IMG/VR virus record: IMGVR_UViG_2565956616_000006
Coordinates: 1-43,312 of that record
DNA length: 43,312 nucleotides
From: a virus
Lineage: Duplodnaviria > Heunggongvirae > Uroviricota > Caudoviricetes
Reading direction: 5' to 3' (one strand)
The notes beneath the pieces are model-generated. The model made no database searches and was not told the origin of the DNA. It was given only the letters and a program-made list of their open reading frames with translations. Shown here in pieces: positions 21,095-36,881 of the stretch; within the stretch, counting starts at the first letter, position 1, and each line of letters starts with the position of its first letter. The translations under genes were made by a program, and so were the position numbers.

Positions 21095-21112
21095 GCTTCT
21101 TCATGTGCGTAG

Positions 21113-21230
21113 AAAAGGTGTTGGTTCAGTTGGTTCAGTTGGTTCAATTTGTAAAGTGTATTGTTTTATAAGGATTTTATTCTTTTTATTGAACCAACAC
21201 TGAACCAACAACACGGTATTTTGAACCAAC
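21113..21230. repeat. Iteron origin candidate 1: 3 tandem TTGGTTCA(G/A), a ~40-bp AT-rich spacer, then 3 inverted TGAACCAAC
   Basis: Tandem 9-mers at 21121-21147. Inverted copies at 21190, 21201 and 21222. Lies immediately 3' of the primase-helicase gene. Confidence 0.75.
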
Positions 21231-21283
21231 ACAATGTGACTGAATTGATGCGCACAACACCTGGCTGGCATCAGAGAGTGTTT

Positions 21284-21355
21284 TACGAGACTTTCGTAAA
21301 ATCCTGTGTACAAGGGCGTGACGTTTTTGAAAGTGAGCACTACGAAATTTTCGTA
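21284..21355. promoter_or_regulatory. Two TACGA-N5-TCGTA inverted-repeat sites (21284-21298, 21341-21355)
   Basis: Read directly, 57 bp apart. Operator-like; the binding protein is unknown. Confidence 0.45.
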
Positions 21356-21550
21356 GTTCAAAAAACAGCCTCTGAGAAGTTGTTATGCCTGTTCAGCAAA
21401 CCATCCGCATAGCTGATCGCGAATCAAATTACCAATGGAGCCAGAAGCAAGGGCAGAACTGAAAAGCGCCTGCCGTGAAGAGTAATGCGACACCATAAAT
21501 ATAGTTTTTAGAGTCCATAAAAAACCTGTCAAAACCTGACACACAGAACG

Positions 21551-21583
21551 ATGCCACCAGCTACTGAGCGGTGGCATTTTTTT
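21551..21583 (+). terminator. Strong rho-independent terminator ending a non-coding stretch
   Basis: ATGCCACC-N11-GGTGGCAT followed by TTTTTT. No credible ORF in the ~300 nt upstream on the + strand. Confidence 0.75.
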
Positions 21584-21678
21584 GTGCTATTTGTTTCATA
21601 TTTTGCAATTACTATGATGAATATTGCGATTTGTGAAACTATAATAACTGTTGTTTTATACAGTTCTAAGGGGGCGTT

Positions 21679-21840
21679 ATGGCTATTTCAGTAAAGCCGG
21701 TATTGATAAGTGAGAAGCAAATGGAAGCGATAAAGAAAATTCAGGAAGAGCAGCGTAAAAAATCAGGAATTGGAGTAGCGCCAACTCTGCATGAAATTGC
21801 ACGAGGGTTAATAGATAAGGCGCTGGCAGGCTGTATGTGA
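21679..21840 (+). CDS. Small ribbon-helix-helix-like protein, 53 aa (below the ORF-track cutoff)
   Basis: ATG at 21679 after AAGGGGG. Translation MAISVKPVLISEKQMEAIKKIQEEQRKKSGIGVAPTLHEIARGLIDKALAGCM has a beta-strand, helix, helix layout. The inverted repeat TTGCAAT-N13-ATTGCGA at 21603-21629 lies upstream. Confidence 0.5.
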   Translation: MAISVKPVLISEKQMEAIKKIQEEQRKKSGIGVAPTLHEIARGLIDKALAGCM

Positions 21841-21856
21841 AAATGGATGGCATCGC

Positions 21857-22318
21857 ATGGAACTAAAATTTATTGATAACCCTGTGCGATTACAGGCCTT
21901 TCTTAACGAGCCAGGCAATACCGAAAATATTGTTGAGCCGGGGCACACGTACTACATCAAGCCTGATGCGGTATATCTCGGCATCTACGAAGGATTGGTG
22001 CTGGCTGGCGTTCATGAAGTGCGTAACTTCTGGCATAGCATTGTTGAATGCCATGCGGTGTACGACCCCGGATTCCGTGGTGAATATGCACTGCAAGGGC
22101 ATCGATTATTCTGCAAATGGCTTCTCGAAAACTCACCATTCCTTAACAGCATTACCATGGTTCCTGACACCACCAAATACGGACGGGCAATTATCCGTTT
22201 GCTTGGCGCTACCCGTGTTGGTCACCTTGATGATGCTTATATCAGATGTGGTAAACCCGTCGGCGTAACGCTTTATCAGTTAACTCGGCAACAATATAAG
22301 GAATTCAGCGAATGTTAA
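21857..22318 (+). CDS. gp14-like protein, second copy (satellite-borne), 153 aa
   Basis: Same size and position as 2699-3154. Shared motifs: CHA.Y.P..RG, G.....(L/I)G..RVG. Confidence 0.65.
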   Translation: MELKFIDNPVRLQAFLNEPGNTENIVEPGHTYYIKPDAVYLGIYEGLVLAGVHEVRNFWHSIVECHAVYDPGFRGEYALQGHRLFCKWLLENSPFLNSITMVPDTTKYGRAIIRLLGATRVGHLDDAYIRCGKPVGVTLYQLTRQQYKEFSEC

Positions 22319-22989
22319 TTACCCACATAGCTCATAAACATCTCAATCGTGCCGTATACGAAAAAGGCGGTGATGGTGGTGCCTCTAAAGCTCAGGCGAA
22401 GGCCCAGCAGCAGGCAATTGATTTGCAGCGCGAGCAGTGGAATACGGTGATGAATAATCTCAAGCCGTATGCAGAAGTCGGATTGCCTGCTTTACAACAA
22501 CTACAAGGACTGATGACTCTGGAAGGGCAGAATAAAGCCGCGAATGATTTCTTTGGTTCTGGTTTATATAAAACACAGGCAGATCAGGCCCGTTATCAGA
22601 ACCTTGTCTCAGCAGAAGCTACCGGGGGGCTTGGCTCAACAGCTACCAGTAACCAGTTATCTTCCATTGCGCCCATGCTTTATAACAATTGGCTTAGTGG
22701 GCAAATGCAAAATTATGGAAACCTGCTAAATGTCGGGATGAATGCGGCATCAGGGCAGGCAACAGCAGGGCAAAACTACGCCAATAATACCGGGCAACTC
22801 TTGCAGGGGCTTGGCGCTATTCGTGCAGGTCAGGCGCAGCAGCCATCCAGTCTTGCGCGTGGTATTGGTGGGGCGGCATCAGGCGCTTTAGCGGGTGCGC
22901 AACTTGGTTCCGTTGTTCCGGGTATAGGTAATGTCGCCGGGGCTATTGGTGGTGGGCTTATTGGTCTTGTTGGGGGGCTTGGATTCTAA
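22312..22989 (+). CDS. gp7-like ejection protein, second copy, 225 aa
   Basis: Aligns by eye with 3157-3852 through KGG.GG, W/FNT.MNNLKP, QARYQ.L..AEATGGLGSTATSNQL..IAP.L...WLSGQM.NY.NL and the Gly-rich hydrophobic tail. Confidence 0.85.
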   Translation: MLITHIAHKHLNRAVYEKGGDGGASKAQAKAQQQAIDLQREQWNTVMNNLKPYAEVGLPALQQLQGLMTLEGQNKAANDFFGSGLYKTQADQARYQNLVSAEATGGLGSTATSNQLSSIAPMLYNNWLSGQMQNYGNLLNVGMNAASGQATAGQNYANNTGQLLQGLGAIRAGQAQQPSSLARGIGGAASGALAGAQLGSVVPGIGNVAGAIGGGLIGLVGGLGF

Positions 22990-24410
22990 TGGCGACATGG
23001 CAACTTGGCGGGCTGCCTAGCATGGCACCGCAAAATGATAATGCTCCTCGTTCTTCCGTTCCTCAGCCTGTGCAGTATCAGCAGCAGCCAAACGTAGGTT
23101 TAATGGCGCTACAGGGGCTAAGAGGCGTTGCTGAGATTAATCAGCAGGCACGTCAACAACAGCGTAAAGCAGAGTTTCAGAAAGCATATGCCGGGGCTTT
23201 TGAGTCTGGAGACAGAAACAAAATGCGCAGTCTTATTTCTGAGTATCCAGAAGAATTTGAAAGCGTTCAGAAAGGGATGGGCTTTATTGATGACGACCAG
23301 AGAAATTCTATTGGTCATCTTGCGACTAGTGCTCAAATCGCATCTTCGCTCGGAACTGGGGCATTTGGAAAATTCATAGCAGATAACGAAGATGAAATGC
23401 GTCGCTTGGGAATTTCTCCTGAGTCTGTTGCCGAAATGCATGTTAATGATCCACAGGGATTCCAGCGGCTTGCTGGTAGTATGGCACTGTTTTCTCTCGG
23501 TCATGAGAAGTATTTCGATATCAAAGATCAAATGGAAGGTCGGGATATTGAGCGTGGCAAGTTGGCAGAAACAATCCGCAGCAATCAGGCTGGCGAAGCA
23601 CTTCAGGCGAGAGGGCAGGATATTAGCCGAGCAAATGCGTTAACGTCAGCATATGCACCAACAGCAGCAATGCAGAATTACAATCAGTACGCTCAAATGT
23701 TAAAGGAGGATCCAGAGGGGGCGGCGGCATTTGCGGCAGCGGCTGGAATTAATACAAACGCCAAAAAATTAATGAGTGTTAGAGAAAACGATGATGGCAC
23801 TGTCACAAAATACTACACAGACGGAAGTGAAGAGCAGGGAAAACTAAACCAGCCAATATCTGGAGATGGGTTTCGTCCAATAGCTTTGCCAACAGCCCAA
23901 AAGATCATGGAAAAGTCGCCAGAAGGGGCTAAAAAAGCTGCTGGATTTGCATACAGGGTTAGGGATGCTCTTGATTCAATAGATACACTGAAAGACCAGC
24001 TTAGCCCACAGCGAGTGGCGATCATTAATAATGCTTTGGGTAATGGGACGCTGGCTAACTTAACGCTCAGCCCAACAGAGCAGCAATACGTTGTTAATGC
24101 TAATGACGCAATAATGGCAATACTCCGTCAGGAAACAGGGGCAGCTATCGTACCTGCTGAAATGTCAAAATATTATCAAATGTATTTCCCTCAGCCTGGC
24201 GACTCCACAAAAACCATTGATACCAAGCGCCGGAAGATGGAAAACCAGTTCAATTCGCTGAAAGCTGCTTCTGGTCGAGCTTATGATGCTTTGCGGGTTA
24301 TTTCAGCAGTTGACAGAGGAACTTCTTCTTCGTCGCAGACATTGCCGCAATCTGAGCAGGTATCACAGCCAGCAGCCAGCAGTAACTTTTCTTCACTATG
24401 GGGTGATTAA
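22989..24410 (+). CDS. gp20-like ejection protein, second copy, 473 aa
   Basis: MATWQ.G start, 473 vs 471 aa. Shared [20 protein letters not shown] block, which is 52/55 nt identical to the prophage copy. Confidence 0.85.
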   Translation: MATWQLGGLPSMAPQNDNAPRSSVPQPVQYQQQPNVGLMALQGLRGVAEINQQARQQQRKAEFQKAYAGAFESGDRNKMRSLISEYPEEFESVQKGMGFIDDDQRNSIGHLATSAQIASSLGTGAFGKFIADNEDEMRRLGISPESVAEMHVNDPQGFQRLAGSMALFSLGHEKYFDIKDQMEGRDIERGKLAETIRSNQAGEALQARGQDISRANALTSAYAPTAAMQNYNQYAQMLKEDPEGAAAFAAAAGINTNAKKLMSVRENDDGTVTKYYTDGSEEQGKLNQPISGDGFRPIALPTAQKIMEKSPEGAKKAAGFAYRVRDALDSIDTLKDQLSPQRVAIINNALGNGTLANLTLSPTEQQYVVNANDAIMAILRQETGAAIVPAEMSKYYQMYFPQPGDSTKTIDTKRRKMENQFNSLKAASGRAYDALRVISAVDRGTSSSSQTLPQSEQVSQPAASSNFSSLWGD

Positions 24411-26515
24411 TGGCTAAAGCATGGAAAGATGTTATCGCCTCTCCACAGTATCAGGCGTTAGCACCAGAACAAAAAGCGCAGGCTCAGGAGCAATACTTCA
24501 ATGAAGTCGTTGCCCCGCAAGCCGGAGAAAGTGTAGAGCAGGCTAAGCAGGCTTTTTATGCTGCCTATCCACTACCATCAACGAATGAAATAGACCGAGC
24601 CCAATCAGCAACTCAAAATATTCAACATACATCATCTGATAATTCTCTTGCGTCAGGGTATGCAAAGTTAGCTACTCAGCAAAGAGAGGGGCTTGAGCGT
24701 TCAGCAGAACAGGGAGCCAGCCTTGGGGCTGCGATGCGCGATGCTATAACAGGCGAAAGCCGAATGACTCCAGAGATGGAGAGACTGCAAAATGTCGACC
24801 TTGCCCCAGAGTTAACCTCACTCAGCATGGATGCTCTAAAAGCTCGATGGTCTCAACTTTTCGGCTCTGACGCATCTCAGGAAAAGATTCTTCAGAGCAT
24901 GGGAGCGAAATTAAGGCAGGATGAGAAGGGTAACACTATCGTTTCCCTGCCATCCGGTGATTATGCTCTGAACAAGCCGGGTTTATCGCCGCAAGACGTG
25001 GCATCGTTTCTGGCTAATGCGCTGGCGTTTACACCAGCGGGCAGGGCCGGAACGGTGCTGGGGGCCATAGGGAAATCAGCAGCTACAGATTTAGCACTAC
25101 AGGGAGCCACCAGCCTCGCTGGTGGAGAAGATATTGATCCGTTACAAACGGTAATTTCTGCTGGCATTGGTGGTATTGGTAAGGGGCTGGAAAATACAGC
25201 GAGTGCGGTTTCGAGGGCTGTTCGTGGTGATATGTCGCCTGAAGCAAAGGCTGCTGTCGACTTTGCATCGGAAAGAAATCTGCCGTTAATGACCAGTGAC
25301 ATGCTGAAAGATAAAACCTTTATGCAGAGTCAGGCTCAGACATTAGGCGAAAGAGTTCCTTTTTTTGGAACCGGTAAGAATCGGCTGAATCAACAACAAG
25401 CACGAGAAAATTTAGTCAGAACATTTAGCGATGGTCTGGGTGGCATTTCTGATAAACAGCTTTATGAATCTGCGACTAAAGGGCAACAAAAATTCATTGA
25501 GGCAGCAGGAAAGCGATATAACCGCATAATTGACGCTATGGGGGATACCCCTGTCGATCTCTCAAACACGGTAAAAGCTATCGACAATCAGATTGCTGTG
25601 TTAAGCCGCCCGGGTAAATCTCAGGATAGAGCCGCGGTAAAAGTCTTGCAGCAATTTAAAGACGATATCACCAGCGGACCAAATGACCTGCGTCTGGCGA
25701 GGGAAAACAGAACCGATCTTCGAAAGCGGTTTATGGCGTCATCTGACACTGTTGATAAAGATACGCTCCAGAAAGCCAGCGATATTATCTACAAGGCATA
25801 TACGGCGGATATGAAAAAAGCCGTAGCCAAAAATCTTGGAGCAGACGAAGCCATTAATATGGCAAGGGTTGATCGCTCATGGTCTAAATTCAATGACATG
25901 ATGGGAAGAACGCGCGTTCAAAAGGCAATAGCCAGCGGCAAGGCCACGCCTGAGGATGTAACAAAACTCGTTTTTAGCCAAAGCCCATCAGAACGTTCTC
26001 AGCTTTACAGGCTTCTGGATGACAATGGTAGGCAAAACGCACGAGCAGCCATAGTTCAGAATGCTGTAGATAAGGCGACTGATCCGTCTGGAAATATCAG
26101 TGTTGAGAAGTTTATTAATGCGTTACACCGGAACAGGAAGCAATCAGCAACTTTCTTTAAAGGCGTACATGGAAAGGAACTGGACGGCGTTATTAAATAC
26201 CTCAACGATACAAGACACGCGGCAAAAGCGAACGTTCAAAACTTAAATGGTCAGCAGCTTTATGGATTGTTAGTTGGTGGTGGCATCATAAACGCAGCAG
26301 TATTAGCGGGGATGCTAAAAACGGCTGCGTTTGTTGTTCCTGCTGCTGGTGCCGTAGGCGGAGCCGCGAAGGCATACGAAAGCCCTGTTATACGAAATGC
26401 CTTGTTACGTTTGGCAAATACGCCAAAAGGTAGCACAGCATATGACAGAGCGATCAGTACGGTCACACAATCGCTCACCAGAGTCGCACAGGCATCACAA
26501 AAAGAAGCTCAATAA
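24410..26515 (+). CDS. gp16-like ejection protein, second copy, 701 aa
   Basis: Position and TAATG coupling. Shared motifs with 5275-7116: MTSD(V/M), KD...AVAKNLGA(S/D).[17 protein letters not shown]. Confidence 0.8.
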   Translation: MAKAWKDVIASPQYQALAPEQKAQAQEQYFNEVVAPQAGESVEQAKQAFYAAYPLPSTNEIDRAQSATQNIQHTSSDNSLASGYAKLATQQREGLERSAEQGASLGAAMRDAITGESRMTPEMERLQNVDLAPELTSLSMDALKARWSQLFGSDASQEKILQSMGAKLRQDEKGNTIVSLPSGDYALNKPGLSPQDVASFLANALAFTPAGRAGTVLGAIGKSAATDLALQGATSLAGGEDIDPLQTVISAGIGGIGKGLENTASAVSRAVRGDMSPEAKAAVDFASERNLPLMTSDMLKDKTFMQSQAQTLGERVPFFGTGKNRLNQQQARENLVRTFSDGLGGISDKQLYESATKGQQKFIEAAGKRYNRIIDAMGDTPVDLSNTVKAIDNQIAVLSRPGKSQDRAAVKVLQQFKDDITSGPNDLRLARENRTDLRKRFMASSDTVDKDTLQKASDIIYKAYTADMKKAVAKNLGADEAINMARVDRSWSKFNDMMGRTRVQKAIASGKATPEDVTKLVFSQSPSERSQLYRLLDDNGRQNARAAIVQNAVDKATDPSGNISVEKFINALHRNRKQSATFFKGVHGKELDGVIKYLNDTRHAAKANVQNLNGQQLYGLLVGGGIINAAVLAGMLKTAAFVVPAAGAVGGAAKAYESPVIRNALLRLANTPKGSTAYDRAISTVTQSLTRVAQASQKEAQ

Positions 26516-26533
26516 CTGGTAGCCATGGATGGC

Positions 26534-27148
26534 TTAGATATCTCTGCTGTCTCCATTAGGAAATAAAAGATAATATGGATTTGCCTTTCTTGCTCTCCTT
26601 GCTTCACCTGGATACCTGTTAGTCAGTAGTTTGCATAATGAGCAGAGAACAACACTCAAGAAAATTCCGAATGAGAAGATCAATATCTCACCAAAAATCA
26701 ATGGCGATATTAAATTTTCAGGATTTAATGATAAGTCAATGTTAAAAACATATTGAGCAATACCAGTAAGTATCAATAATATAATCCCTATGGAATACAT
26801 TGCTGTTTCCCAAACATCAGACAGTCTATTTTTGAATTGTTCGCTGGAGTAGTAGTTTGTTATAAAGTCAGAAAAATCACTCTCATATGCATCATCTTTA
26901 GGTGATGTTAGAAATCCTCTGTCTCTCCATACCTTCTCCCAATTAGTCGATTCTTTTTTTAAGGAAAAATAAATATGTATTGCCAAAAGGATAGCCAAAA
27001 TTGGTGTTAGCTCTAAAAAATAGAATGTTATGGAATAAATAATACTGCCATGTTCAAACTCATCTGGGACTATCATGTATGCACAAAAATAAATTGAAAA
27101 GTACACCATGCAGATAGTTAGCAATTCTTTAGTATCTTTTCTGCTCAC
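26534..27148 (-). CDS. AT-rich polytopic inner-membrane protein, 204 aa, unknown function (sits where sieA follows gene 16 in P22)
   Basis: At least 4 hydrophobic segments with an acidic ~60-aa central loop. Markedly lower GC than its neighbours. Convergent with the E cassette. Confidence 0.65.
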   Translation of the reverse strand: MSRKDTKELLTICMVYFSIYFCAYMIVPDEFEHGSIIYSITFYFLELTPILAILLAIHIYFSLKKESTNWEKVWRDRGFLTSPKDDAYESDFSDFITNYYSSEQFKNRLSDVWETAMYSIGIILLILTGIAQYVFNIDLSLNPENLISPLIFGEILIFSFGIFLSVVLCSLCKLLTNRYPGEARRARKANPYYLLFPNGDSRDI

Positions 27149-27262
27149 ACCAACCCCCTTTAGCGTTGTTTAGAATGGCAATCATCATATATCCAAGACA
27201 TGGCATTTGGTACATAGCTTGGGTCGGGATTTCAAATCCGATCCCCGTTGATGGGGCCGTTA

Positions 27263-27644
27263 CAGTACGCGCATATCCGCTTTATGTGAAACAGGAAGAT
27301 TTTTCTGATATCACTGCCACAGCAAAACACCAATTTCGTGACCAGTACGCGCGCGAGGGGTATCAGTTGCAAAAATTTTGCAACTACGTCCGACCAGTAC
27401 GCACACGATGGCGGGGGATACCATGAAACTGTTCTCTACACGAGACAGAGTGGTGGTGATGTGTTGATTATCGGCGTATATGCGCACAGGACGCGCTATG
27501 ACGATGTTTTATGCGGGTACACCAATCACATGTATCTGATGTGATAAATCGTGTTACATGACATCTCATGTTGTGCTGGTGGTTATCACGACGTTCTGAA
27601 TCTGGCCTTTGCCTGATATTTTGCGACAAGTACGCGCGCGTAGC
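27263..27644 (+). repeat. Four same-orientation copies of a (C/A)AGTACGC(G/A)C motif plus the 19-bp palindrome GTTGCAAAAATTTTGCAAC
   Basis: Copies at about 27263, 27343, 27395 and 27628. The palindrome at 27365-27383 lies between copies 2 and 3. Copies 2 and 3 fall in different reading frames. Confidence 0.6.
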
Positions 27645-28017
27645 ATCGAAATTATCGGATGGCGTATGCTGCTGGCAATATGAAGACCGATAGTATTAAC
27701 CGAAAAGCGATTAAGGAGTGCCAACTTTTCAGTAGAGAAACTAGCCAGCATAGGAAAATGTAGAAATTACCCAATTAATAGGTAAAAGTTATTGACACAG
27801 CCTGTAGTGGATAACGATATGAATAAAAACCACATATAGTGGTTTTTCGTGAGTGATGATAGTATCTATGTTAGTTTCCTAAGTAACTGTGCATTGACAT
27901 GTGGATAACTTCGGATAGAGTTACAGGCAACCGAGCCCGATCCTCTGTTTCTCCGCCGCCGATTTCAGGCATGTGAGTTTCACGGTCGGGCCTTTTATTA
28001 TCTTTTGTTTCGCCACT

Positions 28018-28995
28018 ATGATTGCCGCAAAGCCTCATAAGGACTATCACGAATTGCTAGGATTGCTACTTGAACGTGGCATGATTATCAATGATCGAAA
28101 TCGTGCGATACGTAAGCTGTCGCAGGTTGGATATTATCGATTGTCAGGTTTTTGGTACCCATCAAGAATTATTGCGACAACAGATAAAGGTCTTTCGTAC
28201 AGAACAGACCGATTTCTTGCTGGTACCAGTTTCGAGAAGACGTACGATCTATATCTTTTTGACAAAAAACTGCGTCTTTTGATGATTGATGCTATCGAAA
28301 GAATAGAGATTCATGTTCGTTCAGTCATCGCGCATGAGGTTGGTCGCAATGATCCACTTGCCTACATGTCATCAAAATACATTAATCCAAAATTCTCATC
28401 TGCCTTCGAGCATTGGGTGTATAAGCAAAAAGTAAAATTAGACGAAAGCAGAGATGACTGTATTGAATGGCATCGAAGCCAAGGCAAGGAGATTCCATTT
28501 TGGGTGGCGGTGGAGACCTGGGATTTTGGTCAGATGTCTAAATATTATGCGATGCTTAATGGTCATATGCAGGGGAAAATTATACGTCGTTTTGGCATTG
28601 ATAATAAGCAGACATTTGCAAAATGGTTGAAGTGCCTTAATCTCATAAGGAATCGTTGCGCTCACCATTCCAGAATATGGAATAGAAAGCATCCCCGAGT
28701 TCCAGTACCGGATAATGAATACTTTGACGGACTTAATCTCCATCCAGAGAGTTGCGAGAGGATTTTTAGCGCGATCTGTATTATCTGGTACTTAGTTAAA
28801 CGACTTGGTCCGGGATCAACATGGCTTCGGCAAATTGCAGACCTTATTGACTCTAAACCAAATGTTCCCGGATGTGGATATGATTCAATGGGTTTACCTG
28901 CTAAAGGATTCCCACGAGAGAGATTCTCTCAGGACTTAGGTTTTGTTATCGCCGACAACGACCCTGTAGCTGAAGGGCGGAAAGGGAGCGATTGA
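28018..28995 (+). CDS. Abi_2 family (AbiD/AbiF-like) abortive-infection protein, ~325 aa (ORF-track GTG start at 27973)
   Basis: Family pattern: KP....E.L.LL..RGM.I.D...A...L...GYYRLSG(F/Y)W, LY.FD..LR.L....IE.IE...R, CLN.IRNRCAHH.R.WN. Confidence 0.8.
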   Translation: MIAAKPHKDYHELLGLLLERGMIINDRNRAIRKLSQVGYYRLSGFWYPSRIIATTDKGLSYRTDRFLAGTSFEKTYDLYLFDKKLRLLMIDAIERIEIHVRSVIAHEVGRNDPLAYMSSKYINPKFSSAFEHWVYKQKVKLDESRDDCIEWHRSQGKEIPFWVAVETWDFGQMSKYYAMLNGHMQGKIIRRFGIDNKQTFAKWLKCLNLIRNRCAHHSRIWNRKHPRVPVPDNEYFDGLNLHPESCERIFSAICIIWYLVKRLGPGSTWLRQIADLIDSKPNVPGCGYDSMGLPAKGFPRERFSQDLGFVIADNDPVAEGRKGSD

Positions 28996-29024
28996 GCGAT
29001 AAATATCATTTATACACTGATCAA

Positions 29025-29465
29025 TTACTGAAGCAGCGTATTGATTCTTTTAATATTGTTACCCTGACGCTTCCACGCGCTGTAAATGTCTTTATCCCAC
29101 GCTTTACCAGCTTTTGTTTGGTAGCCTGCTTCATTGAGCCGTTCCGCTATCACACGCCCATTATCAAATCCCTGTCGGATGGTATCGGCAATGATCTTTA
29201 TAACTGCCGTTTCGTTATATGGCTTTGGTGGGATGTTCGGCTTTCCGGCAATAAGCGACGCAGCGGCTTTTTCCATGCGCTCCACCAGCCCAAGCATTCG
29301 TGAATCAATAGACTTTTCCGGCTGTCCCAGCTTCATGCGAATCGCATCAACAAGCCAGGAGGTTTTATCCCCTCCAGAAGCGAGAACAGACCGATTAAAC
29401 TCATCCTGCAATTCAGATGGGATGCGGAACGCGACCAGATTAGATTTGCTCATTGCAAAGACCAT
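29025..29465 (-). CDS. Arc/RHH-type DNA-binding regulator with a C-terminal recombinase-like helical domain, 146 aa
   Basis: N-terminus SKSNLVAFRIPSELQDEFNR....G..K..WLVDAIR.KL is RHH-like. C-terminus I..RLNEAGY.TKAGK.W resembles the motif seen in recombinase accessory domains. The inverted repeats ACAGT-N5-ACTGT and ATAAC-N3-GTTAT at 29485-29512 lie in its upstream region. Confidence 0.6.
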   Translation of the reverse strand: MVFAMSKSNLVAFRIPSELQDEFNRSVLASGGDKTSWLVDAIRMKLGQPEKSIDSRMLGLVERMEKAAASLIAGKPNIPPKPYNETAVIKIIADTIRQGFDNGRVIAERLNEAGYQTKAGKAWDKDIYSAWKRQGNNIKRINTLLQ

Positions 29466-29568
29466 ATCAGTGAGTAATATCCATACAGTATACCACTGTA
29501 TAACACTGTTATACGCTCAAATATCAGCCAGAAAATAACGGACCAATCACAAAGCTATCGCTGTGTTG

Positions 29569-29695
29569 TTGGTTCAGAGCTGGGCTGTGTTGGTTCAAAA
29601 TGAGTTGATGTTGGTTCAATATTTCAGAAAAAACACAATAAAAACAACGATCTTTACAAATTGAACCAACTGAACCAACTGAACCAACACCTTTT
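29569..29695. repeat. Iteron origin candidate 2 (crr-like), an inverted copy of the 21113-21230 cluster
   Basis: TTGGTTCA(G/A) at 29569, 29590 and 29611. AT-rich spacer. Three tandem TGAACCAAC at 29662-29688. Positions 29652-29695 are the perfect reverse complement of 21113-21156. Confidence 0.75.
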
Positions 29696-29724
29696 TGCTT
29701 ATCTATATAATCTGAGAGGCAGAA

Positions 29725-30012
29725 ATGATAAGGGACAGGAAAGCTGAAGAACTGGAGTCAAAAGGGCTATACCGGAGAGCTGCCGCACGATGGGCAGAAG
29801 TCATGATGCTGGCAGATGGCGATAAAGAACGTGAACATGCAGCAAACAGACGCTCTGAATGTATCCGTAAGGCGGCACGCCCACCAGCAACTACAGACAG
29901 ATTCGGAGATTTAAGACAGGCAGTTAAGCGGACTCATTCGGCTCTTGGTATGGATGAGGAAGCGAGAGGGTATTTCAGGCGTTATCGCGATAAAGATTGC
30001 CAGAGACAGTAA
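29725..30012 (+). CDS. PerC-family-like transcriptional activator, 95 aa
   Basis: KAE.LE.KGLYRRAA.RW.EVM pattern, as remembered for PerC-type proteins of enterobacterial islands. Confidence 0.55.
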   Translation: MIRDRKAEELESKGLYRRAAARWAEVMMLADGDKEREHAANRRSECIRKAARPPATTDRFGDLRQAVKRTHSALGMDEEARGYFRRYRDKDCQRQ

Positions 30013-30272
30013 TGCTCTCTCTGTTTTGGCAAATTACCCCTCACTTTGAAGGGATCGGAGCTATAAAAATGGTGTTATCCGGCTTCCTGCATTGCAGGTT
30101 TTCGAAAGAATCAATGGGTTAGGTTATCGTGCAAATTTGCACTCTGCCAGCCAACGCAATTTCTCGTTGGCGGAAATATCAGGTATTTACTGAACGAACG
30201 GTCTACCCGCCTGTTCAACTACCAGTTGTACATGGCTGCTTTATGTGCAAATGGTGGTGAGAGAAAATTGTT

Positions 30273-30293
30273 TGGGGGTACTTTTGGGGGTAT
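30273..30293 (+). repeat. Arm-type repeat pair TGGGGGTACTTTTGGGGGTAT at the right end of element 2
   Basis: 20/21 identical to 11964-11984, same orientation. Confidence 0.7.
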
Positions 30294-30354
30294 CTCCAAA
30301 GATGTAACTGGAAAATGTCTTTATATATCAATGTATTTTTATTGTTTGTTTTGT

Positions 30355-30372
30355 TCCTATTATCGGCACCAT
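30355..30372 (+). repeat. att core copy 2 (junction of element 2 and element 3)
   Basis: TCCTATTATCGGCACCAT, identical to the cores at 11834 and 42759. Confidence 0.9.
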
Positions 30373-30975
30373 CAAGAAAATCAATAACTTAGCTTAACTT
30401 CTCTAAGAAATTGTATCTTCTGTTATCACTTACAAACGCCTATACGTTGTTATGGGCTTTGGTAGTGTAACACGTATGGGCGAGTAGTTCCCAGGCTCAA
30501 CCTCGTAACAAGTTCCTTTGAAGCTGGAAGACGTGCCACCGTCTCTAAACCTTCTACCAAAACTCTTAGCAAGATGTTCCACACCTGGCGCGGTGTCCAA
30601 TGATGCCACACGTCGTGAGACGTTGCAGAGGATAAACAGGCTAAATGATGGGAAGAGTTTTAAGTGCAATAGTGGATTAAAGCCCACCTCTTCAAAACCT
30701 AACTTGATCGGGAAAGAATCAAGCTCTAGCACGGTTTCGTCCACCGGAGTACAACGGGTGCCTGATAAGAGAAGAACTGCTAAGACTTCATAGCTTTTGT
30801 GAAAAAGCCCTTTTAGTGGATACGCCTACGGCGCTTATTTTTTGGTATAACCATCAAAGGCGCTTTATGGCTCCTATTGTCTTGAAAATGTATCTTTACT
30901 TGTATTGTGTTTTATGCGTAGTCTCCCTGTGTAGTATGTAACTTGTTAATTTTCATATGAATACAGAGGCACACG

Positions 30976-31134
30976 ATGAAAAACATTGCAGCTATCAAAC
31001 GTAATAACCGCAAGATTCACGCTCGTAAGTTCCTGTCTACGCCAGAAGGAAAAGCCTGGCTAGAGCGTAAACAGAGAGAGAACGAAGAAAGAAAACTCCT
31101 TAGTGAGTTGAAATGGCTTAGAGAGGATTTCTGA
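30976..31134 (+). CDS. Possible small basic protein, 52 aa (below the ORF-track cutoff)
   Basis: ATG at 30976 with GAGG 7 nt upstream. MKNIAAIKRNNRKIHARKFLSTPEGKAWLERKQRENEERKLLSELKWLREDF. Imperfect hairpin and T-run downstream. Confidence 0.35.
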   Translation: MKNIAAIKRNNRKIHARKFLSTPEGKAWLERKQRENEERKLLSELKWLREDF

Positions 31135-31299
31135 AAATCTCCAGAACGCAACAGGGCGCATTCTAACGCTGTTTTCATTGCTCGGTATAGGGATGTATAG
31201 GTGATGTGTGTTTAATGCGTCTGTGAGCTTGTTTTATGTCTTATTTTGCATTTTCATAATGCAGGAGAGAACACGGAAAGCCTTAAAATTAATTATTGG

Positions 31300-31464
31300 G
31301 GTATTTAAGGCTATTTTTAGGGTATTTAAGGGTATTAAACTTGATTTAATTGATTAAAATATAAACAGATAATTATGTATCTTATTGATTTATAAGGTTA
31401 TTTTTAAATAAAGGTAAATAAAAAATAAATAGCCATAAATAGCTATAAATACATCTAAATACCT
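31300..31464. repeat. Iteron/AT-rich block: GGTATTTAAGG x2 (+1 degenerate, +1 inverted) and four tandem 10-bp ATAAATA(G/C)C(C/T)-type repeats
   Basis: GGTATTTAAGG at 31300 and 31321. GGTATTAAAC at 31331. Inverted CTAAATACC at 31455. 10-bp tandem units across 31425-31464. Confidence 0.6.
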
Positions 31465-31478
31465 ATATCCCTTCCCTT

Positions 31479-31886
31479 ATGGCTAGATTGCGAGAGGTGC
31501 TTAACGCGATTTTTAGCGCCCCCCGATCTGGAAAATCCAGAATCCCCAAATATCAGCAAGGAATTTTCTTGCGTAATCAACATCGTTTTTACCTATTAAA
31601 TCATTACACAGAAAGCCTTTCTGTAATGTCTCTCACTAAACTTTCACTAAACACGAGAATGATCGGTTTTATGTCGGATCAGATGCTAGAAACAGCACCA
31701 CGTCTCACAAGGGCTGTAAGCGATGAAACCAGTGTTTATGCGGGTGCAGGTCAAAATATAGGCCAAAGTCCATTTAACATAATAAACGTAATATGCACTA
31801 AGGAACACATAGAACGCCTTGAGTTGATGTATAAGGGGAAAAGTGGTGGATTTTTTTACGTAGGAGCACGAGAGGGCTTCTATTGA
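31479..31886 (+). CDS. Doubtful ORF, 135 aa
   Basis: Open frame only. No SD, no recognisable family, and it starts inside the repeat block. Confidence 0.2.
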   Translation: MARLREVLNAIFSAPRSGKSRIPKYQQGIFLRNQHRFYLLNHYTESLSVMSLTKLSLNTRMIGFMSDQMLETAPRLTRAVSDETSVYAGAGQNIGQSPFNIINVICTKEHIERLELMYKGKSGGFFYVGAREGFY

Positions 31887-32267
31887 CTTTTGTATGCTAT
31901 GAAATATAATAGAAGGTTTTTATTTTTATGTTGATAGTGATTGCACATTAAAGATTGAAAGCAAATTTAAACATAAATTTTCAACACGTGAAAGAACTTG
32001 TTCGACAAATGATAGAACGTTTATTGAGCAACAATTTTGCAGTGATGCGCTATATGCCGCATAACATAAGGCTTTGCTGATGATGACGCAAAAGTGAAGA
32101 AAGCTAACATTGCACTTTTTAAGCTACTTTTCATTGGATTTTTACGTAGGAATTACACAGGGATTAATCATCAATTACATTGAATTTAAGCCTGTTTTAG
32201 ATGTTTAATTTTGGTAGCAAGAAACACTTTTAGAAGATCATTGCACAGATGTTATGTGATAAATGGA

Positions 32268-32426
32268 TGTAACGATGGGTTACATTCAGCTATCTGAAAT
32301 ACTCTCTGTAAGAAATTTGGTAGTAACGATTCGTTACATAGACTAATTATTGAATGTAACGATATTACACATCGGTAGTAACGATTCGTTACATCGGCAG
32401 ATGATTGGTTGTAACGAAAGGTTACA
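32268..32426. repeat. Array of five 17-bp palindromic sites (T/A)GTAACGA-N3-(G/C)GTTACA
   Basis: Sites at 32268-32284, 32322-32338, 32355-32371 (right half degenerate), 32377-32393 and 32410-32426. Start-to-start spacings are 54, 33, 22 and 33 bp. Confidence 0.8.
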
Positions 32427-33149
32427 CAATAAGACTAACATCTATAATACTAATAATAAAACTAACTATTAAACTATATAATATAATTCTTTTTTATCTT
32501 TATAAGAATAATTATAGGGATACCCGTTAGGGAGTCTAACGACTATCCCTTAATCTATTGGCATTCGCCAGAACCTTGCACAAGTTAGAGTGTTAGTCGT
32601 TAGACTGATACTTCTCATAACACATAGTTTTTTGTTTGTTGATGTTAGTTAGTAGATCTATGTTCGCTAATGCCGCTCACAACGAATATGTAATCTACTA
32701 TGTGCAAATAGCCTACGGCTTGCGTAAGGCTAAATAGTCTATGCGCTGTGCGCTTCAATAGTTCCATTGATGAGGCTTACGCCAATCTAACGATCATCAA
32801 TCTATTTAAGAGAAAATCTATTGTGCAATACTCTGACGAGTGCAATAACCTTGTGTGCTACGCGTTAGCGATGTTAGCACATAGACACAGACAACAACCA
32901 ACAACAAACAAAAAAGAAAGAATGGTTTTAGTAGTTGAAGGTTAAATAAGATTCTACCGCTTAAATCAAGCCTCTGGCGAGCTAAACAACCTCTACATAA
33001 GGGAATGTATTGTTTTTATCAAATACCTCGTTAGAACGCGTTTTAGAGCGTTTTAGAGAATAAGGAAGAATAGGAGCACTCGTAAGAGCACGAATTGCTA
33101 AGAAAAATTATAACACACTGAAAATGATCAATATTTTTATGGCCAGGGG

Positions 33150-33178
33150 TTGACAAAAGCTTTTAGTTATGGTAAAGT
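33150..33178 (+). promoter_or_regulatory. Sigma70-like promoter of the element-3 small-gene operon
   Basis: TTGACA (33150-33155), a 17-bp spacer, then TAAAGT (33173-33178). Confidence 0.6.
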
Positions 33179-33232
33179 AATATTAGGGACAGGAAAACAT
33201 TCCTATCCTCTAAATAATTAAACCAATGCACC

Positions 33233-33275
33233 GCACTTTGAAGCCCAAGAGGCTTGCAAGGTGTCTTTTTCTTTT
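33233..33275 (+). terminator. Leader hairpin plus U-run (attenuator, or the 3' end of a ~90-nt leader RNA) between the promoter and the first gene
   Basis: Outer stem 33233-33239 with 33258-33264. Inner stem AAGCC-CAAGA-GGCTT. Followed by CTTTTTCTTTT. The SD AGGAGG of the first gene lies at 33290. Confidence 0.5.
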
Positions 33276-33301
33276 AACCAAATAGAATAGGAGGTTAATT
33301 A

Positions 33302-33484
33302 GTGAAGTATTTCACTTCTCAAGATGTAGTTGAAGCCTGGAAACGTGGTGAGATCAACCGCTTTAGGGTAAGAATGAATAGGAACACAGCGCGACGCTGT
33401 GGTTATCCAGAGCGTGAAAAATGTTTTGACGATGCACTGAAAATTATTGATGAACTGCGTAAGGCAGGAGCAGAGAAAGAATAA
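33302..33484 (+). CDS. Hypothetical small protein, 60 aa (GTG start)
   Basis: AGGAGG 6 nt upstream. First gene of the operon. Confidence 0.55.
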   Translation: MKYFTSQDVVEAWKRGEINRFRVRMNRNTARRCGYPEREKCFDDALKIIDELRKAGAEKE

Positions 33485-33505
33485 TAACAGGAGAAGGAGA
33501 AAACT

Positions 33506-33673
33506 ATGAGCGAAACCAAGAAACCAATTCCACGCACTTACCTACACGTTGACCCTGAAATTTTCAAGATTTTATTTGCTGAAGCCAAGAAAAGGCAAAT
33601 TATGGTCAGTGATTTGATGTTAGAAATCATTACTGAAGCAGCAGAGAACATCAAACAAAAAAAGGGTAAGTGA
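33506..33673 (+). CDS. RHH (CopG/Arc-like) small DNA-binding protein, 55 aa (below the ORF-track cutoff)
   Basis: ATG at 33506 after GGAGAAGGAG. MSETKKPIPRTYLHVDPEIFKILFAEAKKRQIMVSDLMLEIITEAAENIKQKKGK has a strand, helix, helix layout. Confidence 0.55.
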   Translation: MSETKKPIPRTYLHVDPEIFKILFAEAKKRQIMVSDLMLEIITEAAENIKQKKGK

Positions 33674-33726
33674 TCCTCATTCACTTTAGTAGCGCATTAA
33701 GCGTGATTTATAAGGAGATAATTCTA

Positions 33727-34407
33727 ATGTCTAAAATTAAATTGATTCGTGAAAAATACCAGTATGTTGATCAACAAACAGGAGAAATTAAAGACCGAAC
33801 TTTGAATATACCACACTACTTTTGTGAGATTGAATTCATCTACTCCTCAAATATTGAGGATGGAAAAGCGAAGTTTAGTGCAGAAATGCAAAAATTATAT
33901 TGCTATGTTTCAGATTGGGAGAAATCAGGGGGGATATGTTTTGAAACACAAACGAAGTTAAGTAAAGTTTGTGGCTGTAGCCGTAAGACAGTTAATGAAT
34001 TGATTGGTCTTATGATTAAAATCGGTCTTTTAGAAGAGGTCGGAGAACGAATCCCAAAACGTCCATTAAAATTACGTGCGCTACCTCTCACAGATGCACA
34101 TATTACCCCCCCTAGAGAGTCATCACTACCTGATCCTTCTGAGAAAGAAAACGAATCTAATGAAATATTGAATGTTTCAGAAATCATCGTTGAAGAAGAA
34201 ATACAGGAATCAGAGTTCCCTGAGCGGCCCGAAATTTTTACTTGGCTTCTTTCCCTTGATAAGAAGAAACCACCGCACGAAGAAACAGAAGATTTTGTAA
34301 AACGAGCATTAGATTCAAAGAATATCTATCTTTGTGAAAATGATTTTGACTCTTTGATAATTGATCTCAAAAGTGAGAGCACAATATATGATTCACTACC
34401 CTTTTAA
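33727..34407 (+). CDS. Winged-helix DNA-binding protein with an acidic C-terminal half (possible replication initiator/regulator), 226 aa
   Basis: ATG at 33727 after AAGGAG. Central T.LSKVCGCSRKTVNELIGLMIKIGLLEEV is wHTH-like. The ORF-track start at 33670 is an extension. Confidence 0.55.
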   Translation: MSKIKLIREKYQYVDQQTGEIKDRTLNIPHYFCEIEFIYSSNIEDGKAKFSAEMQKLYCYVSDWEKSGGICFETQTKLSKVCGCSRKTVNELIGLMIKIGLLEEVGERIPKRPLKLRALPLTDAHITPPRESSLPDPSEKENESNEILNVSEIIVEEEIQESEFPERPEIFTWLLSLDKKKPPHEETEDFVKRALDSKNIYLCENDFDSLIIDLKSESTIYDSLPF

Positions 34408-34416
34408 GGAGAATAA

Positions 34417-34686
34417 ATGGCTTATAACATCACTATAGGAAACAAAACTATTGAAATAACTGAGAGCGGATACCACATTTTAAAAGCTATTTTGGAAATA
34501 GAGTTCTCACCGCCGACAGTGGTTAGCTTTTGTAGTTTAGGCGGCTACAGCGCACAACACGTGAATCATTGGTTAAACCATTTTACATCGTTCGGTGTGC
34601 TGGATTATGAAGGGATTAACCACACTACATTTCGTCTTTTGAAATTAAACAAAGATTTTGAATTGTTTATCACAAACAATCAATAA
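34417..34686 (+). CDS. Hypothetical protein, 89 aa (possible wHTH)
   Basis: AAGGAG SD upstream. Same operon. Confidence 0.55.
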   Translation: MAYNITIGNKTIEITESGYHILKAILEIEFSPPTVVSFCSLGGYSAQHVNHWLNHFTSFGVLDYEGINHTTFRLLKLNKDFELFITNNQ

Positions 34687-34782
34687 CAACAGATCGGGCA
34701 ATACATATGGCAAATGCATTTATGGCGATATTCATCGTAACTATGGCATTAAGTTTTTATAATCCACATAAAAAGAGGGAAA

Positions 34783-35169
34783 ATGGGAAAAAAGAAACGT
34801 AATAACTTAAAACGTATTGAAAAAAACAGTAACTTCAATTCAACAAGACAACGTCCACCGACACATACCAATAACGAAATTCCAGGGGAAGAGATAATCT
34901 TCATTTTAGAATCTAACAGCCCACCACTTACAAACGAAGAATTAGAAATTATTCAATCAATGGGTGATGGTGTGTATTTCAAACCCAGAACAAGAAAGAC
35001 AACGATTATAGAACCTGGCACATTAAAGAAATGGCAGCTGTTAAATTTTACCAGCTACAGGCACTATATCGGTTTTAATAGTTTCAACAATCAGGTAGGC
35101 GGCGTTACAGAAACAGATCTGATGCAGCACCTGATCGACACTCTCGCATCTAACAAACGTTCAAACTAA
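34783..35169 (+). CDS. Hypothetical protein, 128 aa
   Basis: AGAGGGA SD upstream. Same operon. Confidence 0.55.
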   Translation: MGKKKRNNLKRIEKNSNFNSTRQRPPTHTNNEIPGEEIIFILESNSPPLTNEELEIIQSMGDGVYFKPRTRKTTIIEPGTLKKWQLLNFTSYRHYIGFNSFNNQVGGVTETDLMQHLIDTLASNKRSN

Positions 35170-35186
35170 AAATAAAAGGAACAACA

Positions 35187-35390
35187 ATGATCGACCATAT
35201 ACAGGAAACACAATTATTTCAGATGATCCTGTCTGATGCAAAAAACTATGCTGAGTTAATTCGGCTGGCAAAAGAAACAGAAGACTACGAAGCATTAGAG
35301 CGTTATCGTGATGAAGTGCTGACGCTCAAGACACCTTTTAACATCGTATTGAATATGATTAATGATGCATTACAAGGAGAAGCCGCATAA
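35187..35390 (+). CDS. Hypothetical helical protein, 67 aa
   Basis: AAAGGA SD upstream. Same operon. Confidence 0.55.
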   Translation: MIDHIQETQLFQMILSDAKNYAELIRLAKETEDYEALERYRDEVLTLKTPFNIVLNMINDALQGEAA

Positions 35391-35698
35391 TGGAAGAAGA
35401 TATTAGCAATGCAATGGAACAACTTTTAGATCTGACTATCTCACTACAAACAAGAATAAATCAAGCCTATTCAGATTTATGCGATTACACGCTCTCTCAA
35501 TGCGTTATTAGCTTAATGAAGGTGAATGTAAGCCTTGACGATTTTATCTCTCTGGGGAGCGGTTTAGAGCTATCAGAGGACAATGCCAGGCTGTGCACTC
35601 AAATCATCACAGACACCGCAAGCACGTTAAAGGCTGCAAGTGAAGAGATTCAGCAATTAGTAAATGATTTAGCAAAAAGTGCTATTTCTTCTAAGTGA
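35390..35698 (+). CDS. Hypothetical helical protein, 102 aa
   Basis: TAATG coupling with the upstream gene. Confidence 0.55.
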   Translation: MEEDISNAMEQLLDLTISLQTRINQAYSDLCDYTLSQCVISLMKVNVSLDDFISLGSGLELSEDNARLCTQIITDTASTLKAASEEIQQLVNDLAKSAISSK

Positions 35699-36605
35699 TA
35701 ATGAAAATCATTTGCATTTATAACAATTTCATTATATAATGAAATTAGGGGTAGATAAAAAGGTTTTGACTGGTGTTAATCCTTCTACTGTCATAAATCC
35801 CTGCATATGGAAGGTGATAGCCTCAAAGGTTGAGTGGCATTAACCTCTAACAAATATTACCTTCCATCTCTCAAGAAGTTTTAGAATAATCATAACTCCC
35901 TCTTTGATTGTTGATTGTTTCTACGTTGTGTTGATGAATGTTGTTAGGCATTGTGCTTAATTTTGATAAAAGCGGGTAGGTGTTATCTCCTTGCCCTTCC
36001 CGCTATTATTTTTCATCTATGCTTATCCTAAAGCTCCTTATTTTGTCCGAAAACATTAAAGAGCCTTACACTGATAGTTATATTTTATAACTATTTACTA
36101 ACATCATTAAACTCTTATTTAATGACGGAAGTTAGTAACAGAATAATCTATTAAGTTGTTGTCAAAAAACTATCATCTGCATAGCGTTAGCCGCAAGTAG
36201 AGAGAGTTTAGTTAAGAATGGTGCAATAAACTTTGGAAATATTGATAGCAAAACTAGTTTTATAGAATGCGGATCTATAATCTTTGGTTGTAAAAACGAT
36301 TTTCTGAAACGGTAGATTACTGTTGGTGTAGTTAATCATTATTAAAAATTTAATCTGTGAGTAGATTGGAATAGTGATTCCTTAAAATCTGACTGGTGCA
36401 TCCACACCATGAAAGATAGCGGTTGGCCACCGCGCCCCGAATAGATATTCCTGATTGATTCCGCATGTTTTCCTAAGAGCATGTTTTCAGGAGTATCTAT
36501 TCACCCTTTAAGCATATCATCAAGTATATTTAAAAAGTGTATTTGCTGATATGTTTAATCCTCTTATAGTTTAACTTATCAATTATGTAATTGCCCGCAC
36601 GTTAA

Positions 36606-36655
36606 AGCCCCTTTGCTGGTCAGAATTAACCTCTTACGGCATTGGGGCTTTTTAT
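36606..36655 (+). terminator. Long-loop rho-independent terminator ending the 35.7-36.6 kb non-coding stretch
   Basis: AGCCCC-N32-GGGGCT followed by TTTTTATTT. Confidence 0.55.
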
Positions 36656-36683
36656 TTGTCTGGCACTAACAGGAACGTTATTT

Positions 36684-36881
36684 ATGAAACAAGAAATGAT
36701 TATCAGCAAAGACGGGGAAACGATGATTGTTAGTGATGAAAACCTCATTAAGGTTGCCGCACTGTTGGGAGTTACTCCCGAAAGTCTTCGTTCTACCACT
36801 GCTCAATTATTTAAATCGGCTGATGCGGTTAGTCTTGCTGATGCCCTTAAATCTAAAATTAAACAACTGAAAGGAAAATAA
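36684..36881 (+). CDS. Hypothetical small protein, 65 aa, first gene of the capsid-type cluster
   Basis: ATG at 36684. The ORF-track TTG start at 36642 lies inside the terminator stem. Confidence 0.45.
   Translation: MKQEMIISKDGETMIVSDENLIKVAALLGVTPESLRSTTAQLFKSADAVSLADALKSKIKQLKGK

Follow-up and report, generated by a model that had tools for sequence, protein, structure and literature searches.

The locus studied here raises the question of whether two defence-like genes lying behind a set of phage ejection genes work together with them or only share a place of insertion. The window, that is, the whole stretch of DNA that was analysed, has 43,312 nucleotides (nt) and corresponds to the IMG/VR virus record IMGVR_UViG_2565956616_000006 (Caudoviricetes). 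The islet at 26534-28995 contains a gene for a membrane protein of 204 amino acids (aa) and a gene of the Abi_2 abortive-infection family, and a cassette of P22-type ejection-protein (E-protein) genes, homologs of gp14, gp7, gp20 and gp16, ends just before them. An earlier sequence-only reading had taken the islet for accessory cargo, had placed the membrane protein in the position of the P22 exclusion gene sieA, and had proposed that exclusion and abortive infection are paired here with matching E-proteins. Our analysis bears out the first of these proposals, as the region is the variable cargo area, with swappable slots, of an integrative island that is not a prophage. The islet probably consists of two independent, horizontally exchangeable defence cassettes occupying two fixed slots of an island of 18.5 kb that is integrated at thrW. 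The two genes add new members to known families, SieA and AbiF, and the AbiF gene is preceded by a structured RNA that is a variant missed by current annotation. Joint working of the cargo cassettes with the injection genes is not supported, and the proposed pairing appears improbable, since the slots assort independently and P22 SieA excludes phages with its own E set.

The slot borders were set by comparing the window with five variants of the island, and occurrences were counted in 5426 complete E. coli genomes. Slot 1 has exact borders, at 26535 and 27144. The 3' end of the window's gp16 gene is present in 419 of these genomes; the sieA-like gene follows it in 101, while in about 318 the same gp16 allele is found without this sieA and unrelated genes fill the slot instead. 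These other occupants are multi-pass membrane proteins (129 or 131 aa), a secreted PHROG-2651 protein (145 aa) and other genes. The alternates are also envelope proteins, which fits an exclusion-type slot. The slot-1 genes of other variants (L089, L004 and L090) all start with a backbone-encoded peptide, MIAILN(K/N)AKGRVGV. In the window this leader (27149-27190, minus strand) is out of frame (MMIAILNNAKGGWCEQKRY, then stop) and overlaps the GTG start of the sieA-like open reading frame (ORF).

Slot 2 carries the complete AbiF cassette. In other variants its left border lies at 27649, 27705 or 27710 and its right border at 29055 or 29567, and the window's cassette is replaced by a second abi allele, by an ImmA/CapP-like protease together with a small membrane protein, by gene pairs of unknown kind or by small helix-turn-helix (HTH) genes. 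The abi allele of the window (allele 1, at least 99% identity) is present in 74 of the 5426 genomes. The sieA-like gene is found in 64 of these 74, and allele 1 also occurs paired with a different slot-1 gene. Slot occupants of other variants (L174:4832-6238, minus strand; L004:9951-10814, plus strand; L176:3196-3894, plus strand) include gene pairs that have no Pfam or PADLOC match (318+145 aa; 232 aa), as well as the ImmA/CapP-like protease and its small membrane protein. The unmatched gene pairs and the ImmA/CapP-like protease pair are candidates for unknown defence systems. The coordinates of all features are given in Table 1.

Table 1. Features of the island and its cargo slots, in positions of the window.
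Feature	Position	Strand	Evidence or remark
SieA-family protein, 204 aa, GTG start	26534-27148	-	BLASTP, PHROG, hhalign, transmembrane (TM) scan
Slot 2, complete AbiF cassette	27711-29054	+	upstream hairpin, promoter, structured RNA, ORF
AbiF/Abi_2 HEPN protein, 325 aa	28018-28995	+	Pfam, PADLOC, PHROG, PDB 8VZ6
Sigma-70-type promoter of abi RNA and gene	27894-27921	+	TTGACA-16-TAGAGT, 10/12 consensus positions
Structured 5' RNA	27926-28008	+	covariance model R1, covariation
Island E-protein cassette (gp14, gp7, gp20, gp16 homologs)	21857-26515	+	directly upstream of slot 1
Non-coding backbone module	27145-27705	.	between both cargo slots
Terminator-like hairpin, readable in both directions	27825-27847	.	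AAAAACCAC-ATATA-GTGGTTTTT, upstream of abi promoter
Integrative island	11834-30372 (18.5 kb)		bounded by 18-bp direct repeats TCCTATTATCGGCACCAT = thrW 3' end, at 11834 and 30355
isrK RNA	15689-15766	+	Rfam, 67 bits
C4 antisense RNA	15829-15916	+	Rfam, 79.5 bits
Backbone gene, 146 aa	29025-29465	-	flanks slot 2; slot right border (29055) inside its 3' end

The 204-aa protein is a true, distant SieA homolog, beyond mere gene position. BLASTP aligned it to P22 SieA (type A; 29% over 108 aa, E=8e-8) and to the experimentally characterised SieA of the E. coli prophage HS1 (type B; 34% over 118 aa, E=2e-9), and an unbiased scan matched it to PHROG 7745, 'SieA-like' (E=4.4e-4). A profile of the protein and its Citrobacter relative was compared by hhalign with a profile of the type B and type A proteins, which gave a probability of 98.4% (E=5e-15, 130 columns, residues 53-188). 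The relation to SieA therefore has stronger evidence than position alone. Position itself was read correctly, the ORF being convergent on the gp16-like gene (24410-26515) with a gap of 18 bp; P22 sieA is likewise convergent on gene 16, 22 bp after it. The gene is also AT-rich as described. The GC content of 26501-27000 is 0.34, while that of the E-protein genes before it is about 0.47. Four of the proposed four or five hydrophobic helices were found by a Kyte-Doolittle scan (residues 9-27, 39-57, ~115-137 and 150-168) and a fifth was not. The loop described as acidic (58-111) does contain an acidic sub-stretch, but is mixed-charge overall (10 D/E, 8 K/R). The N-terminus, this loop and the C-tail are predicted to be cytoplasmic by the positive-inside rule, and the protein would be located in the inner membrane.

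Known SieA proteins have three TM helices in type A and four in types B and C, which carry an extra N-terminal helix, and share the motif FxRYPxEAxxFNK (PMC10883804). The island protein resembles P22 and HS1 SieA in its convergence on gene 16 with a gap of about 20 bp, in its small size and multi-pass topology, the four predicted TM helices being those expected of type B, in the loop residues S.E...NR..D and the predicted cytoplasmic RYPGEA tail, and in having an ortholog in the canonical slot. Residues S101, E103, N107, R108, D111 and RYPGEA are invariant in a four-way alignment. It differs from them in that the identity of 29-34% covers the C-terminal two thirds only, with about 50 unrelated N-terminal aa, in that the motif ends in RRARK and not in xxFNK, and in that its host island has no capsid, tail or tailspike genes; its function is predicted by homology.

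A word-indexed protein search returned E. coli clusters and one Citrobacter freundii protein (50% identity) only. The Citrobacter ortholog belongs to a complete P22-like prophage, where it stands between gp16 and mnt/arc/ant/tailspike, the canonical sieA slot, and the gp16 beside it is 76% identical to the island gp16. It is therefore probable that the island acquired its gp16-sieA block from a phage of this kind. In a published survey every sieA examined sat in a P22-like prophage, between genes 16 and 9 (PMC10883804). In the island the sieA-like gene adjoins gene 16 and is convergent on it, there is no gene 9 (tailspike), and the element is not a prophage. A HMMER profile search of 1.84 billion representative proteins (E<=1e-3) returned 43 clusters, one of them the query's own. 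Among the 42 others, 41, all spanning the C-terminal core, also align to P22 and HS1 SieA; the exception is a 105-aa N-terminal fragment. The 43 clusters consist of small membrane proteins, many with the sequence LTNRYPGEAxxxRK, a variant that is common among uncharacterised family members. As judged from these alignments, the SieA family is far more diverse than its three published types. The island protein is a fourth, very divergent SieA sequence type, in a non-prophage island.

Other searches gave no match. Pfam and PADLOC returned nothing significant for the 204-aa protein, and the Pfam library used also gave none for bona fide SieA, as PF26849, found on type-B proteins, is not in it. Searches of 50,697 phage records by tblastn with the protein, even at E<=10, and by megablast with the islet returned nothing. 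A 169-aa 'protein' from a 670-bp contig (ENA) was discarded as a fold-back assembly chimera and not a gene; it fuses the sieA-like N-terminus with spacer read-through and its reverse complement. The ORF that follows gene 16 in the co-resident P22-like prophage (7141-7530, minus strand) was also considered as a SieA and rejected, since it is not SieA-like, and this prophage has no sieA. The ORF encodes a PHROG-2651 protein, and PHROG 2651 is also found in slot 1 of some islands; the ORF is unrelated to one slot-1 alternate and shares this PHROG with another.

By homology, the SieA-like protein would block the delivery of P22-like phage DNA at the inner membrane by interfering with the gp20/gp16 conduit. 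Four observations weigh against this assignment. The SieA motif is partly kept, TNRYPGEARRARK in the C-tail against FxRYPxEAxxFNK, with the RYPxEA core and the final K present and both F residues and the N lost; the first ~50 residues are unalignable; the nearest consensus promoter is ~500 nt upstream of the start, with none close; and the GTG start overlaps the out-of-frame leader ORF. The last two, together with the frequent replacement of the gene by unrelated genes, would suit a passenger co-captured with gp16, without a selected exclusion role in the island, or a protein with another membrane function. We consider this quite unlikely, since the ORF is uninterrupted and has precisely the length of the Citrobacter ortholog (50% identity), the family-invariant residues are kept, the gene is 99-100% conserved across the 101 genomes, and the slot alternates are envelope proteins too. 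Exclusion of P22-like phages, by a protein probably captured together with the neighbouring gp16, is the reading that we prefer.

Does this protein discriminate between E sets? The second E cassette had been recognized correctly, and its proteins match Pfam Inj_translocase (E=5.7e-58) and PHROGs 651, 598 and 770. They are very unlike those of the co-resident prophage (gp14 23%, gp7 54%, gp20 41% in the N-terminal half only, and gp16 30% identity), and the island gp16 is ~30% identical to P22 gp16. With such a divergence, a matched lock-and-key may be imagined, in which the island SieA blocks particles with helper E-proteins and spares particles with the island gp7/gp20/gp16. Published escape mutations lie in the C-terminal regions of gp16 and gp20, and hybrids with very divergent E sets are excluded alike by SieA types A and B, the HK620 set alone escaping, partially (PMC10883804). 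The mutations and the HK620 case speak for such a lock, as does the fact that this sieA is found only beside this gp16 lineage, in 101 complete E. coli genomes and likewise for the Citrobacter ortholog. However, linkage alone makes adjacent genes co-occur, about 318 of the 419 genomes with the same gp16 allele do not have this sieA, and the breadth of types A and B across divergent E sets argues against discrimination. In addition, P22, whose E set is encoded next to sieA, is itself excluded by P22 SieA (PMC10883804), so that a sieA lying beside E genes does not by itself mean immunity. The island gp16 keeps the published escape residue G532, and the gp20 proteins of the island and P22 cannot be aligned in the escape region; there is therefore no sequence sign of built-in immunity, and the attempt to read SieA sensitivity from these escape residues was dropped as uninformative. 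We regard the lock-and-key as improbable. The published breadth of SieA and the independent assortment of the slots make a built-in 'immune entry machinery' unlikely, and the block would likely cover particles with the same E-protein type too.

A wider scheme may also be drawn, to which we give little credence. Here the island would be a P4-type satellite retargeted to P22-like helpers by its own gp14-gp7-gp20-gp16, with a divergent SieA that discriminates E sets, closing the inner membrane to helper-type particles and letting in those with the satellite's E-proteins, or the reverse. If this were true, the island would offer a natural matched SieA/gp16/gp20 pair for resolving how SieA recognises the ejection conduit.

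The gene in slot 2 encodes, to judge from its sequence, a bona fide full-length AbiF-family HEPN protein. The Abi_2 signature that had been seen in it is present as GYYRLSGFW and IRNRCAHHSRIWN, and Pfam Abi_2 (PF07751) matched with E=2.3e-52 over the whole model, PADLOC AbiD with E=8.4e-58 and PHROG 2158 with E=1.8e-56. PbAbiF (PDB 8VZ6 chain A) is homologous over the full length (E=4e-36, residues 4-301 vs 8-292), and the HEPN motif R211-N-R-C-A-H216-H aligns with RNSCCHH of PbAbiF (R210/H215). The start is the ATG at 28018, which is the RefSeq start, agrees with the N-termini of homologs (MIAAKPH...) and lies downstream of the conserved RNA. The mechanical ORF list extends the ORF to a GTG at 27973.

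The gene has its own promoter and a conserved structured RNA, both missed in the sequence-only reading. Homologous abi loci, 80 in all, were used for the RNA comparison and nearly all have the same element; alignment A3 contains 60 sequences. Two helices were found in it. P1 pairs 27935-27942 with 27984-27991, and next to it come a CUC bulge and a UG step. The second helix, P2, forms an extended hairpin, and a U-rich tail occupies 27992-28010. Compensatory changes were observed in 11 of the 16 pairs, 95.2% of the cells are paired against 27-44% when the partners are slid, and the covariation score is 0.547, against 0.08-0.15 in the slide controls. In 73 of the 80 loci, covariance model R1 gives exactly one match, which lies upstream of the abi gene and on its strand. 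It recovers the element of the window and nothing elsewhere in 457 kb, and does not match abi-less island variants. A promoter with at least 9 of 12 consensus positions ends 3-6 nt before the start of the RNA model in 67 of 74 homologous loci (4-5 nt in 65), so the structure begins at the 5' end of the transcript. The second E. coli abi allele (51% aa identity) has an identical promoter and a diverged leader, in which the P1 stem is kept by compensatory changes. The unpaired nucleotides CCUCUG and UAYG are also conserved.

This RNA is not a member of the Rfam family of abiF RNAs, RF03085, but a long-hairpin relative of it. RF03085 had no match at E<=10 in 26400-29700, nor at E<=1 in 17 homologous loci, while the same scan detects it at 38-58 bits in PbAbiF loci from metagenomes. 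Model R1 gives a weak match at the same spot of the PbAbiF RNA (11.5 bits, E about 0.2), and the two RNAs share a CAxUAG-CCCG...CGGG-U-rich frame. Position and strand relative to the Abi_2 genes are alike and the flanks are similar; the 3-bp stem and 11-nt loop of RF03085 differ from the hairpin of 5-9 bp or longer found here. PbAbiF with its AbiFr RNA (Zilberzwige-Tal et al. 2025, as presented in the reviews PMC13064643 and PMC12737573) and C. difficile AbiF with RCd22 show the same order of promoter, structured RNA, U-tract and ORF. Their RNAs also have the GC-rich closing stem (CCCG...CGGG), a CCUCU tract right after it and a U-rich tail, and the PbAbiF protein has the same HEPN motif RNxCxHH. 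The 37-nt abiF motif occurs once at PbAbiF and twice in RCd22. The RNA of the window, in contrast, is a single unit with a long covarying inner hairpin (60-85 nt), and belongs to a proteobacterial clade on an E. coli island that is known here from sequence alone. Our analysis defines a class of RNAs upstream of a large proteobacterial abi clade, missed by current Rfam annotation. Pasteurellaceae abi loci (L061, L067, L071, L072 and L074) have no match to the RNA model; upstream of abi they share another conserved element, GTGGCGTAGCCCCTG...CTACGTCCTTGCC, which may be a third variant of abiF-type RNA.

AbiF systems are type III toxin-antitoxin systems, in which the upstream RNA attenuates transcription and binds the HEPN protein (PMC12373285; reviews PMC13064643 and PMC12737573). 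By analogy, the sigma-70 promoter of slot 2 would drive an RNA of ~80 nt with a U-rich end, followed 10 nt later by the putative HEPN RNase gene. The RNA is most likely both attenuator and antitoxin; it would halt most transcripts before the toxin gene and would also bind and neutralise the protein, as in a type III toxin-antitoxin system. Phage infection may then free the RNase activity and lead to cell arrest. The RNA is thus likely the second component of the Abi system. A role as a mere cis-acting transcription attenuator or leader, with no protein-binding antitoxin function, appears rather unlikely to us. It would be consistent with the GC-rich P1 followed by a U-rich tract right before the ORF, with a promoter common to RNA and ORF, and with RCd22, which works partly via premature termination (PMC12373285). 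Nevertheless, RNA and protein co-diverge as a unit, whereas the promoter is the same in both E. coli alleles, the conserved unpaired CCUCUG and UAYG exceed the needs of a terminator, and both characterised AbiF RNAs bind their proteins, according to PMC12373285 and the reviews.

Some points stand against the proposed toxin-antitoxin cassette. The folding energy of the single window RNA is unexceptional (z=-1.3), so the RNA is supported by covariation and not by energy. Equivalence to the PbAbiF RNA as an antitoxin is an extrapolation, as the Rfam abiF model misses this RNA and model R1 matches the PbAbiF RNA only weakly. There is also no clear Shine-Dalgarno sequence at the abi start codon.

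The cassette might act mainly as an addiction or stabilisation module that retains the island or an episomal form, rather than in anti-phage defence. Its type III toxin-antitoxin architecture is compatible with this, prophage maintenance has been proposed for C. difficile AbiF (PMC12373285), and among the records of island relatives there are a circular 12-kb 'plasmid' and a contig that is circularly permuted. However, the 12-kb circular form has no abi cassette, the abi allele is present in only 74 of about 548 island-bearing genomes, and the slot elsewhere holds other defence-like genes, e.g. the CapP/ImmA-like protease. Lactococcal members of the family confer phage resistance (PMC13064643). 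We therefore find a mainly stabilising role unlikely, if less so than the attenuator-only role, and the two functions are not mutually exclusive. Anti-phage defence is favoured for the AbiF cassette, as it is for slot 1.

The spacer between both ORFs (27149-28017) had been described as structured and 870 bp long. It measures 869 bp. Structure is supported by covariation at its 3' end, where the abi RNA lies, and outside this end the spacer folds only marginally better than shuffled sequence (z=-2.0). Rfam scans of 26400-29700 at E<=10 and of 17 homologous loci at E<=1 assigned neither the spacer nor the abi leader to a family. The cassette-specific part (27711-27925) belongs to the abi cassette and contains the hairpin and the promoter. 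The hairpin arms AAAAACCAC and GTGGTTTTT are identical in the variant with the second abi allele; the terminator scanner missed this hairpin because its stem has too few G-C pairs.

The backbone module between the slots is found with 95-100% identity in 548 of the 5426 genomes, adjoining different cargo. It was treated as non-coding because there are stops in all six frames and different frames are open in different variants. Five CAGTACGCGC-like decamers lie on one strand of the module (27263-27637). In the window as a whole there are 9 matches against 2.0 expected, a number reached in 0 of 100 shuffles. A perfect 10+10 palindrome is situated at 27365-27385, and at 27652-27685 the module has a 34-nt stretch with 31 of 34 positions identical to nt 72-105 of an ES18-type terS, in which the minus strand has a promoter-like site (TTGCCA-16-GATAAT). 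A decayed terS, a pac mimic, or a leader/promoter of the slot-1 gene are candidates for this module. The stretch has no match in the terS of HS1 or in that of a related P22-like prophage (strain 19451123), the latter used as a proxy as the window does not include the terS of the co-resident prophage itself. Targeting of the module by the C4 or isrK RNA was also considered, and was dropped as the complementarity is at chance level (9-11-mers only).

The island region is 100% identical to chromosomal islands of many E. coli genomes. Its 18-bp thrW core TCCTATTATCGGCACCAT is present in three copies in the window (11834-11851, 30355-30372 and 42759-42776), in which three elements are therefore integrated in tandem, namely the P22-like prophage, the island itself and, at 30373-42758, a third element with an integrase. 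In E. coli strain a15 the island encodes, in order, an integrase, an HTH protein, an Ant-like protein, an ash-type regulator, a TOPRIM/DUF927 primase (919 aa), gp14, gp7, gp20, gp16, the membrane protein, Abi, the 146-aa protein and PerC. Among the island ORFs, PHROG scans and RefSeq annotation showed neither capsid, terminase nor tail genes, and none of sid, psu and delta. The E-protein genes fill the late region, where P4 sid/psu/delta-type genes were sought and not found. The isrK and C4 RNAs lie within or beside the 'ash family' ORF, and this stretch is an RNA immunity region of the P1/P7/P4 type, in an element carrying P22 ejection-protein genes. As in P4-type satellites, there are thus an integrase, attachment repeats at the ends of the element, a primase-type gene for replication and an RNA-based immunity. 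In the island a P4/P1-type core for control and replication (integrase, C4 antisense RNA and primase) is joined to a P22-type ejection-protein module, and the island is as such a more unusual object than its cargo. Within the library searched, no paper was found that describes a satellite with P22 ejection-protein genes.

The two slots recall the defence hotspots of phage satellites and prophages, such as those of P4 and P2 (PMC13586616), as they have fixed borders in a mobile element and near-identical elements swap known and unknown defence genes in them. They differ in that the island is not a canonical P4 (sid/psu/delta not detected) and has P22-type E-protein genes, and in that one slot, the one after gene 16, is inherited from the P22 layout.

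Two extrachromosomal records of related islands, the circularly permuted 19.2-kb contig NZ_LT599831.1 (named 'phage_14408_2') and the 12.2-kb circular 'plasmid' NZ_CP148430.1, hint at excised or episomal forms; both are without the thrW attachment core and have a different integrase/attachment module. The 146-aa gene product is probably a DNA-binding regulator, with weak matches to Pfam HTH_62 (0.041) and PHROG 30270 (2.7e-4) and no similarity to the Mnt-like protein of the Citrobacter prophage. The gene is divergent from the PerC gene (29725-30012), and the pair is kept together in several island variants. In the immI region of the co-resident P22-like prophage, Rfam detects a sar RNA at 8588-8654 (minus strand).

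SieA has so far been reported only in P22-like prophages (PMC10883804). The island gene bears on the recognition of very divergent ejection proteins by SieA, and the island type together with its prophage-borne ortholog forms a comparison set for SieA-gp16/gp20 specificity. The abi RNA class matters for the annotation of defence systems and for the evolutionary story that leads from AbiF to Cas13. Finally, the two slots are a new place to seek unknown defence genes, as several of their occupants have no recognisable family.

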